From the NCBI RefSeq assembly GCF_044324785.1, contig NZ_CP172127.1: DNA of 64,000 bases. The stretch is one strand, 5' to 3'. Below, in pieces: positions 52,499 through 53,011 of this stretch (within the stretch, counting starts at the first letter, position 1; each line of letters starts with the position of its first letter). The notes below the pieces were generated by a model that saw only the letters and a program-made list of their open reading frames with translations, had not been told where the DNA came from and made no database searches. The stretch comes from Escherichia coli (GTDB lineage: Bacteria; Pseudomonadota; Gammaproteobacteria; Enterobacterales; Enterobacteriaceae). The position numbers were made by a program, and so were the translations under genes.

Positions 52499-52527
52499 TT
52501 GACGATAAAACAACTATAGTTTTAAAT
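52499..52527 (+). promoter_or_regulatory. Candidate early-left promoter (pL equivalent) with upstream operator palindrome
   Basis: TTGACG-17 nt-TTAAAT; immediately upstream aacaac-tttt-gttgtt palindrome and further ACAACC half-sites (52455-52500) like those in OR. Confidence 0.3.
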
Positions 52528-52600
52528 GAATTCATCGCAACAACACAACGATACGGCAATCACCTGATTCACCGTTGCGATGACCGCTTAGATCCGCAGC

Positions 52601-53011
52601 TTGAATTTCAGCAGGCTCCGGGGAGTGCGAGGGGTGAAGCGGACGCGTGAACGTCGGTGTGACCAGCTGAAATCAACTCAACACTTCATACCTCAGTCGC
52701 TTCAACGAGGCGACTTAGTTATGACAACCGGCGGCCATCCACCGCCTGAATACGCGCAGAAGTCTCTATATGTTCAGCAGCCCAGCTTACGGGCAGGAGT
52801 TTTTATGGTTCATCAACATTACGGAACGCAGACCGTTAATCGAGGTGCGGTCATGCCAGGAATGCTGGTCAAACACAAAGATGGTACCTGGACTGCATCA
52901 GCTAATTTACGCGGACGGCTATATCTGCATCGCGGCATCGAGCGCACTTATACCCGTGATTTGCTCGTGGAAGTTTTTCTCGACGGACGCGGTAACGGCC
53001 TGAATCACTAA
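52601..53011 (+). CDS. Hypothetical early protein; possible N-like antiterminator if translated from an upstream alternative start (Arg-rich N-terminus)
   Basis: ORF from TTG at 52601 (GTG at 52625/52634 possible) encodes …GVKRTRERR…, reminiscent of N arginine-rich motifs; ATG at 52720 with better RBS would give 97 aa without that motif. Confidence 0.3.

Follow-up and report, generated by a model that had tools for sequence, protein, structure and literature searches.

Conserved RNA elements in the pL leader of an N-less lambdoid prophage of Escherichia coli and a candidate antiterminator at the nutL/putL position

Early antitermination through boxA/nut sites is established in the lambda and rrn systems. 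Processive antitermination by RNA alone is, to our knowledge, known from very few systems, namely the put RNAs of HK022-like phages and, in Bacillus, the EAR element, and we know of essentially one structure from which the reprogramming of RNA polymerase by a nascent RNA is understood. The action of put is blocked by rpoC mutations in the zinc-binding domain, such as Y75N, and put has been studied by cryo-EM in a roadblocked elongation complex. Here, we analyzed the leader of the early-left operon, transcribed from the promoter pL, in a stretch of 64,000 nucleotides (nt) of an Escherichia coli genome (contig NZ_CP172127.1 of assembly GCF_044324785.1), referred to as the window. The window contains an N-less lambdoid prophage of the 4A7/Bievrevirus type with its early-left operon on the + strand. 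The pL leader (~52533-52804) comprises three RNA parts: a 5' stem-loop, a conserved module termed element X, and a pre-kil element. Judged by Rfam and the searchable literature, the X and pre-kil RNAs are undescribed; X lies at the nutL/putL position, and the protein encoded next, Kil, is an ordinary one. We tentatively propose an antitermination role for X. The RNAs described for comparison are the put RNAs of HK022 and HK639 (putL and putR), cis-acting antiterminators that bind RNA polymerase at the zinc-binding domain of its beta' subunit (PMC9378689; HK639 GenBank annotation), and AgvB, a prophage-encoded anti-GcvB small RNA (sRNA) of enterohaemorrhagic E. coli (PMC4104026).

Element X and its slot downstream of pL

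The leader and its promoter have the following features:

52484-52527, + strand: oL operators and pL promoter, with operator repeats at 52484-52525
52499-52504: pL -35 box TTGACG, followed after a 17-nt spacer by the -10 box TTAAAT at 52522-27 (alternative -10 box TATAGT at 52515-20)
52532-52583, + strand: 5'-terminal stem-loop of the pL transcript, with a perfect 10-bp repeat and a CA-rich single-stranded internal loop
52538-52549, + strand: CAACAACACAAC, perfect 12-nt complement of the GcvB R1 seed, in a part of the 5' stem-loop predicted to be unpaired
52582-52672, + strand: element X, a conserved two-hairpin leader RNA module of ~91 nt
52594-52603 / 52612-52621, + strand: helix 1 of X, from RNAalifold and compensatory changes
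52639-52645 / 52652-52658, + strand: inner hairpin of X, from RNAalifold and compensatory changes
52606-52611 / 52667-52672, + strand: possible pseudoknot of X, UUUCAG with CUGAAA
52687-52799, + strand: pre-kil RNA element, the third part of the leader
52687-52723, + strand: pre-kil hairpin 1, with CAUA paired to UAUG and a core stem at 52695-52700 / 52710-52715
52721-46, + strand: invariant 26-nt pre-kil core AUGACAACCGGCGGCCAUCCACCGCC, which contains hairpin 2
52730-34 / 52742-46, + strand: pre-kil hairpin 2, 5 bp with a 7-nt loop
52754-65, + strand: conserved pre-kil block GCGCAGAAGUCU
52780-94, + strand: pre-kil hairpin 3, variable, abutting the Shine-Dalgarno sequence of the next gene
52795-99, + strand: AGGAG, Shine-Dalgarno sequence of kil
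52805-53011, + strand: kil, coding for a KilR-type FtsZ/cell-division inhibitor of 68 amino acids (aa); it opens the pL operon, with gam, bet and exo coming next

The candidate pL proposed in a first-pass annotation of the window, which had been made from the sequence alone, is well supported by its operators: the oL repeats at 52484-52525 are reverse-complement matches (73-95% complementary) of the oR repeats at 50690-50730, and the layout of pL and pR is identical in this phage. Transcription from pL probably starts at ~52526-52536, as expected from the promoter spacing and in coincidence with position 52534/35, where homology to phages of other immunity sets in.

A diverged copy of 52584-52676 was first seen in an IMG/VR contig (L046) and then in further contigs, and 24 distinct sequences of 3-4 subtypes, colinear over ~101 nt, were aligned. 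In this alignment, 98.6% of the cells of the specified structure hold standard pairs, compared to at most 41.5% in slid controls, and both helix 1 and the inner hairpin (52639-58) are independently predicted by RNAalifold. Four pairs change on both sides, in helix 1 from A-U to C-G and from G-C to A-U and in the inner hairpin twice from A-U to G-C; the other variation at paired positions is wobble-compatible. In addition, the loop of helix 1 could engage in an H-type pseudoknot, the predicted stem of which is paired in 99.3% of the cells and shows no covariation because both strands are nearly invariant. These strands are the core of an imperfect inverted repeat (52601-12 with 52666-76) that the first-pass annotation had pointed out. 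The repeat is present, with one bulged A, but it is not unusual on its own (z = +0.14), and in the comparative data the region of its 5' arm pairs differently, as helix 52594-52603 / 52612-52621.

X is constant in sequence across at least seven immunity regions and three kinds of downstream sequence, and this constancy next to differing 5' and 3' neighbours suggests a self-contained module; the X model detects exactly one copy per X-bearing locus. A scan of 52200-53200 with all 4227 Rfam families yielded chance-level matches only (E of at least 0.31), which were spurious or driven by the terminator at 52330-53, and scans of four related loci gave nothing relevant. Neither the X nor the pre-kil core sequence was found in Rfam or in the searchable full-text literature, a body that excludes most subscription journals. 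A search for further X subtypes with GGGAGTGCGAGGGGTGB retrieved unrelated chance matches only, and a scan of genome contigs with GGGGAGTGCGAGGGGTG only chance matches in high-GC genomes.

A common stretch of ~45 nt, CATCGAAACGAAACATCGACAGCTGAGCGAAGTTAGCCAGCGGCG, opens very many lambdoid pL transcripts, and the window's own start, CATCGCAACAACACAACGA, is by eye identical to the first part of this sequence at ~15 of 19 positions. Among 142 distinct cassettes found after CATCGAAACGAAACATCGACAGCTGAGCGAAGTTAGCCAGCGGCG, a script counted 77 boxA, 44 put and 9 X and left 12 unclassified; by inspection, the latter were 10 boxA variants, one put (L128, 91.9 bits) and one X (L273). The totals are thus 87 cassettes of the boxA/nutL type, 45 of the HK022/HK639-type put and 10 X, with none double and none empty. 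Likewise, the put model found no put in X loci, and the X model no X in put or boxA loci. The boxA-type cassettes carry a boxA-like UGCU(C/U)UUUAACAA and then a long sequence, with ~150-200 conserved GC-rich nt after the boxA (e.g. L004 of HK225, L013, L021, L039 and L086). In the shared-flank loci, no family of open reading frames (ORFs) is consistently linked to boxA-type cassettes, and no protein family encoded between the cassette and the pre-kil element tracks the cassette type; the phi80 'N' and HK225 gp40 families accompany both boxA and put cassettes.

The relation between the X and put loci extends to the flanks. In five loci (L303, L273, L144, L150 and L151), the 3' flank of X (TTACCAGCAGCTCTTTGCGAGGGGCTGACGGTAAACAA...) is shared with HK639 putL, and in two of them, L303 and L144, the surroundings of X on both sides, next gene included, are almost the same as those of the RNA that HK639 has annotated as 'putL-like antiterminator RNA'. 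In L303, this gene is a homologue of HK639 gp45, and the intrinsic terminator AACCCGCTCCGGCGGGTTTTTT and the pre-kil element follow ~0.8 kb downstream. In all six X loci with a pre-kil core within 3 kb, at least one intrinsic terminator separates X from the core. The arrangement in the window is compact, running from pL through the 5' hairpin, X and the pre-kil element to kil, and the genes and terminator that lie between X and the pre-kil element in other phages are absent. In L046, ~400 nt without a convincing ORF (~6150-6560, - strand; -700 to -310 from the pre-kil core) lie between cassette and terminator; ORF-poor stretches of ~400 nt are also present in L076, L086 and L216, with no match in Rfam. 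The stretch includes AGCTAGTTGGTGAGGTAATGGCTCACCAAG, which seems to resemble a segment of bacterial 16S rRNA closely.

The first-pass annotation had considered a put-like RNA element in the leader. This idea is supported in position and logic: X occupies the putL slot between homologous flanks, ~50 nt after the predicted transcription start, and terminators follow it in the L046-type and L303 loci. It is not supported with regard to family. A covariance model built on seven put sequences, which scored five put loci outside the model at 87.6-94.9 bits, found no match in the whole window or in any X locus; with filters off, its best score within 40000-58000 was 4.9 bits (E 1.6), outside the leader. 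Rfam appears to hold no put family, as its scan of the HK022 put region gave no meaningful match. In HK639, the model detects the left-operon copy only, which means that a right-operon copy is not universal in the family; in the right operon of this phage (L134, 2011-2070), an annotated 'M3-like RNA' follows cII instead of putR, and the put model finds nothing there.

The flanking leader RNAs and the kil reading frame

The other inverted repeat of the first-pass annotation, tcatcgcaac at 52532-52541 and gttgcgatga at 52574-52583, is found exactly where it had been placed. The 64-nt hairpin that it forms is predicted at -15.1 kcal/mol, compared to -8.1 +/- 2.4 kcal/mol for shuffled sequences (z = -2.91; 0 of 200 as good), clearly more stable than chance; neither the whole leader nor the second repeat stands out in this way. 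The inner 7 bp of the stem (52535-41 / 52574-80) are invariant in 26 distinct leader variants and are all that is kept of it in relatives with a different immunity region. The stem-loop probably protects the 5' end and may stabilize the mRNA. Its predicted unpaired part includes CAACAACACAAC, the longest perfect match to GcvB R1 on both strands of the window (next best 9 nt), and the predicted energy of the CAACAACACAAC-GcvB duplex ties for best among 21,324 windows; the identity of the GcvB sequence was confirmed by Rfam RF00022 (199 bits). Having no equal in the window and predicted to stay single-stranded within the hairpin, this CA-rich complement of the R1 seed would suit a target or sponge of GcvB. 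We regard such pairing with the leader as a hypothesis rather than a finding, and as a rather improbable one.

Hairpin 1 of the pre-kil element is well supported by covariation. In 56 sequences, all six core pairs of hairpin 1 change on both sides and 97.3% of the cells are paired; the covariation score is 0.556 compared to 0.164 in shuffled alignments (0 of 500 as high) and at most 0.098 in slid controls. RNAalifold extends the hairpin to CAUA/UAUG, thereby including the AUG at 52721-23, and the G-U pairs in hairpin 1 identify the + strand RNA as the folded strand. The core is present in at least 120 IMG/VR contigs, and the element also occurs in phi80, HK225, HK639, Klebsiella KO-TP1 and Enterobacter ENT1. 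In these phages, it directly follows an intrinsic terminator (in phi80 immediately behind the N-annotated gene with its terminator), whereas in the window it follows X. The phages that carry it have a boxA cassette, put (HK639, CobraSix) or neither, and the element thus cannot itself substitute for N. In 88 of 130 loci, Kil is encoded on the downstream side of the core at a distance of at most 1.1 kb. We would guess at a role of the element in the processing or translation of the delayed-early left genes. Three IMG/VR contigs (L042, L048 and L102) lack hairpin 1, and their core directly adjoins a terminator (ACCGAC...GTCGGTTTTTT ATGACAACC); the core can hence exist without this hairpin, or the terminator hairpin substitutes for it.

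Two other interpretations of the element were dismissed. Hairpin 2, annotated as a terminator in HK639, is not followed by a T-run in most variants. A small ORF from the AUG at 52721 (MTTGGHPPP...; 52721-52804) was rejected as a conserved leader peptide on its conservation pattern: the variants in its first eight codons are all nonsynonymous except in the third Pro codon, which varies at the third base only and is uninformative since any CCN encodes Pro, and the blocks further downstream read in all three frames, which places the constraint on the RNA. The polyproline codons of this ORF form hairpin 2; a ribosome-stalling or leader-peptide role is conceivable, and the pattern favours RNA.

The ORF that the first-pass annotation had viewed as possibly N-like is kil, and it starts at ATG 52805 and not upstream. 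The 68-aa form from this ATG, which is preceded at 5 nt by the Shine-Dalgarno sequence AGGAG, matches phrog_294 over residues 1-68 (E 1.3e-37), and the same form is annotated in phage 4A7 and by the Prokaryotic Genome Annotation Pipeline (WP_000233577.1). The 136-codon ORF from TTG 52601 matches phrog_294 over its last 77 residues only. The 'N-like ORF' is a mis-start of kil, and the long form is annotated in some GenBank records, such as PhiR47_2 with 128 aa. The ORF from TTG 52601 to 53011 with its in-frame GTG 52634 (MKRTRERR) does exist; the ATG given as 52720 in the first-pass annotation is located at 52721-23, and the true start had been missed.

A divergent N with an Arg-rich N-terminus, starting at GTG 52634 or TTG 52601 and binding a leader hairpin, strikes us as extremely improbable. 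The GTG is preceded at 8 nt by GGAG and changed to ATG in two variants, and the peptide KRTRERR is similar to TRRRERR, the motif of lambda N, but the respective codons (52634-52660, + strand; GTG AAG CGG ACG CGT GAA CGT CGG) coincide with the CG-rich inner hairpin of X, RTRERR being the translation of CGG ACG CGT GAA CGT CGG, i.e. of the conserved hairpin GACG-CGUGAA-CGUC at 52642-55. In another X subtype (L046), the Arg codons change while the hairpin architecture is retained with a different sequence. The conservation of the extension was assessed by codon reading of the variable positions in the 26 leader variants. In 7 of them, a stop codon (52694 C>T) breaks the frame upstream of kil, and in others this frame is shifted (2-nt deletion 52758-59 in 2/26, 1-nt deletion 52795 in 1/26); it shows 5 synonymous versus 9 nonsynonymous substitutions plus the one stop. 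No more than ~20 aa would be left as a constant product. A PHROG search with the 57-aa extension upstream of Kil gave no match. Judged by these comparisons, the Arg-rich stretch is not a conserved coding sequence. The statement of the first-pass annotation that no clear N homologue is present agrees with our data: PHROGs returned nothing N-like, and tblastn of lambda N, HK022 Nun and phi80 'N' against the window gave a best E of 1.7, with no match in the leader.

Possible functions of the leader

A single site upstream of a terminator is always filled by one, and no more than one, of the three cassettes, and the simplest interpretation is that all three supply the same function; this function would be early antitermination, as known for boxA/nut and, from experiment, for put (PMC9378689). 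On this comparative evidence, X may be a new cis-acting, protein-independent antiterminator RNA that is put-like in role and not in family, a reading that we hold to be quite possible though short of probable. With more reserve, we suggest that X could represent a third, structurally unrelated class of lambdoid early antitermination, in which the nascent RNA alone makes the polymerase terminator-resistant and which is interchangeable with putL and boxA/nutL cassettes. Both the effect on termination and its independence of protein are points that we infer. In such a mechanism, transcription from pL would start at ~52526-52536, with the 5' stem-loop protecting the transcript end; nascent X would then adopt its fold and, like put of HK022 and HK639, work in cis on the RNA polymerase that is transcribing it, which could then pass intrinsic terminators. 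In relatives, the obstacle would be a terminator of the tL1 type that follows X at 0.8-2 kb. In the window, the pre-kil element leads into kil (ATG 52805), and two terminator-like hairpins come into question:

54912-54944 (hairpin 54912-34), + strand: terminator-like hairpin inside the pL operon
55507-55534, + strand: terminator-like hairpin GGAGC-UACAG-GCUCC (stem 55507-25) followed by U6, i.e. AGGGAGCTACAGGCTCCTT then TTTTATTATT, in the gap before a DksA-like gene and xis/int

The hairpin at 55507-25, upstream of xis/int, is the better candidate obstacle and the nearest one that would call for antitermination.

Several observations weigh against an antitermination role. The slot position of X is circumstantial evidence, and in the common, window-type arrangement X and kil are not separated by a terminator; the first terminator-like site comes 2.9 kb downstream. 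X matches put neither in sequence nor in structure, having a different fold with possibly a pseudoknot, and its local alignments with boxA-type and put cassettes were no better than those of shuffled sequences. A search of the pR operon with the X model found no second copy, and the pR side is heterogeneous among these phages, with a perfect boxA in the window and none in 4A7. Moreover, the diversity of X is low, its covariation amounts to few independent events as there are only 3-4 subtypes, and recent spread could account for the 96-99% identity that it shows across E. coli. The folding energy of the whole leader is ordinary (z = -0.8 and z = -0.46).

The main rival explanation is that the leader serves post-transcriptional control only and has no effect on termination. 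In this case, the 5' stem-loop together with X would govern how stable the pL mRNA is or how it is processed, the pre-kil element would limit the synthesis of toxic Kil, and the CA-rich loop would pair with GcvB, as target or sponge. The stability of the 5' hairpin (z = -2.91) fits with this, as do the pairing of hairpin 1 with the AUG at 52721-23, the position of hairpin 3 against the kil Shine-Dalgarno sequence and the proximity of Kil to the pre-kil core in 88 of 130 loci. The 12-nt GcvB complement, unique in the window and predicted to be unpaired, has a precedent in that a phage anti-GcvB RNA is known (AgvB, PMC4104026); it lies outside X, however, and only in the window-type 5' flank, with no terminator/Hfq module for the release of an sRNA. 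Post-transcriptional control also leaves unexplained why X, put and boxA exclude each other at a single site with shared flanks and why X stays constant while the downstream gene changes. We consider this explanation somewhat unlikely.

Alternatively, X could be a nut-like loading site that needs a protein partner, either host Nus factors or an unrecognized phage protein encoded elsewhere, which we judge to be unlikely. X shares its slot with boxA cassettes, and by our reading its conserved single-stranded block GACCGCUUAGA (52582-92) is about as far from the shared flank as the boxA is in nut-type cassettes. At the nutR position between cro and cII (50404-50416, - strand), the pR transcript carries CGCTCTTTAACAA, a boxA that matches the rrn-type consensus perfectly and makes it plausible that the phage uses host Nus factors. 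No boxB hairpin adjoins this boxA; the same boxA occurs in at least four other immunity types, where GGCUGA-NNNN-UCAGCC hairpins follow, and phage 4A7 has the same leader without a boxA on the pR side. The boxA of the window may bring NusB/NusE to the pR transcript in the absence of N. On the pL side, by contrast, neither CGCTCTTA nor GCTCTTTAACAA was found with up to three mismatches in 52527-52805, the nearest match being at 52312-23, upstream of pL. There is no N-like ORF beside X in the window, no protein family between cassette and pre-kil element that tracks the cassette type, and the flanks of X resemble those of the put type (GCGAAGTGGAG) and not of the boxA type. The sequence at ~52311-23, CGCTCTTAA, is a boxA similar to that of lambda nutL, 11 nt upstream of the strong terminator hairpin 52330-53 and downstream of a moron ORF; it lies upstream of pL and hence outside the pL transcript, and may be due to chance (~0.5 expected per window) or a remnant. 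A 15-mer, CGCAGCTTRAATTTC, that is found both at 52595-609 in the pL leader and at 50424-38, where cro ends, was considered as a remnant of nutL/nutR. It was rejected because a match of this kind does not exceed chance when 4.6 kb are compared, and because other cro modules lack it.

If X is an RNA antiterminator as proposed above, a second, unrelated RNA with the job of put would offer an independent solution for comparison, and its natural swap partners, put and the boxA cassettes, sit in otherwise identical operons. It would also explain N-less early-left expression in very common E. coli prophages: a match to the leader is present in 2,230 of 5,426 complete E. coli genomes (~40%), and the 285-nt leader is found at 80% coverage or more in 2,205 of the 5,426, mostly at 95-99% identity. 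Strain FDAARGOS_144 has a leader 100% identical to that of the window. Whatever their function, X and the pre-kil element are two conserved structured RNAs new to Rfam and to the searchable literature.

Prophage setting and comparison with known systems

The remainder of the early region of the prophage is organized as follows:

48804-49823, - strand: O
49820-50359, - strand: cII
50429-50659, - strand: cro
~50690-50730: oR
3' end at 51453, + strand: cI-type repressor
51536-51799, + strand: moron ORF 1, 87 aa, phrog_4231
51812-52255, + strand: moron ORF 2, 147 aa, matching phrog_3556 over the C-terminal half of that family; a membrane segment is predicted at the C-terminus
52330-52353, + strand: intrinsic terminator upstream of pL
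from 53087, + strand: gam (phrog_259), after kil
from 53389, + strand: bet
from 54171, + strand: exo
56328-57491: integrase

The nearest phages are 4A7 (genus Bievrevirus), Lambda_4C10, Perceval and PhiR47_2. Their gene order is that of the window, cI - cargo - Kil - Gam - Bet - Exo, and N is not among their annotations. In sister phages, the moron slot between cI and the terminator holds GevT/GevA or other cargo. In the pL operon of HK225 (L004, 4912-5009, - strand), Rfam reports isrB, an Hfq-binding sRNA, at 38.2 bits (gathering threshold 35 bits), antisense to the early-left operon.

Compared to the Kil family (phrog_294) including KilR of the Rac prophage, the protein of the window is ordinary, with a match over its full length of 68 aa and a position directly upstream of gam-bet-exo; only the annotated start varies between records (68 versus 128 aa). 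With AgvB, the leader shares a CA-rich mimic of GcvB targets on a lambdoid prophage, in the window a 12-nt complement of R1. AgvB, however, is a stand-alone sRNA of 51-60 nt downstream of pR' (PMC4104026), whereas the motif of the window sits inside the 5' hairpin of an mRNA with no terminator, so that location and architecture are not homologous.

With lambda N/nutL, X has its position in common: it is found in the leader between pL and the first terminator, it alternates with boxA cassettes at one site, and pR of the window has a consensus boxA at the nutR position. In contrast to lambda, the window lacks an N gene, the pL leader is free of boxA, and the pR boxA is not accompanied by boxB. 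With put, finally, X shares the location in the transcribed leader just downstream of pL, a length of ~70-100 nt, two stem-loop domains, intrinsic terminators that follow, and a phage that has no N gene. As in HK639, there is a copy in the left operon only, and in some phages X is located within the very flanks of HK639 putL.

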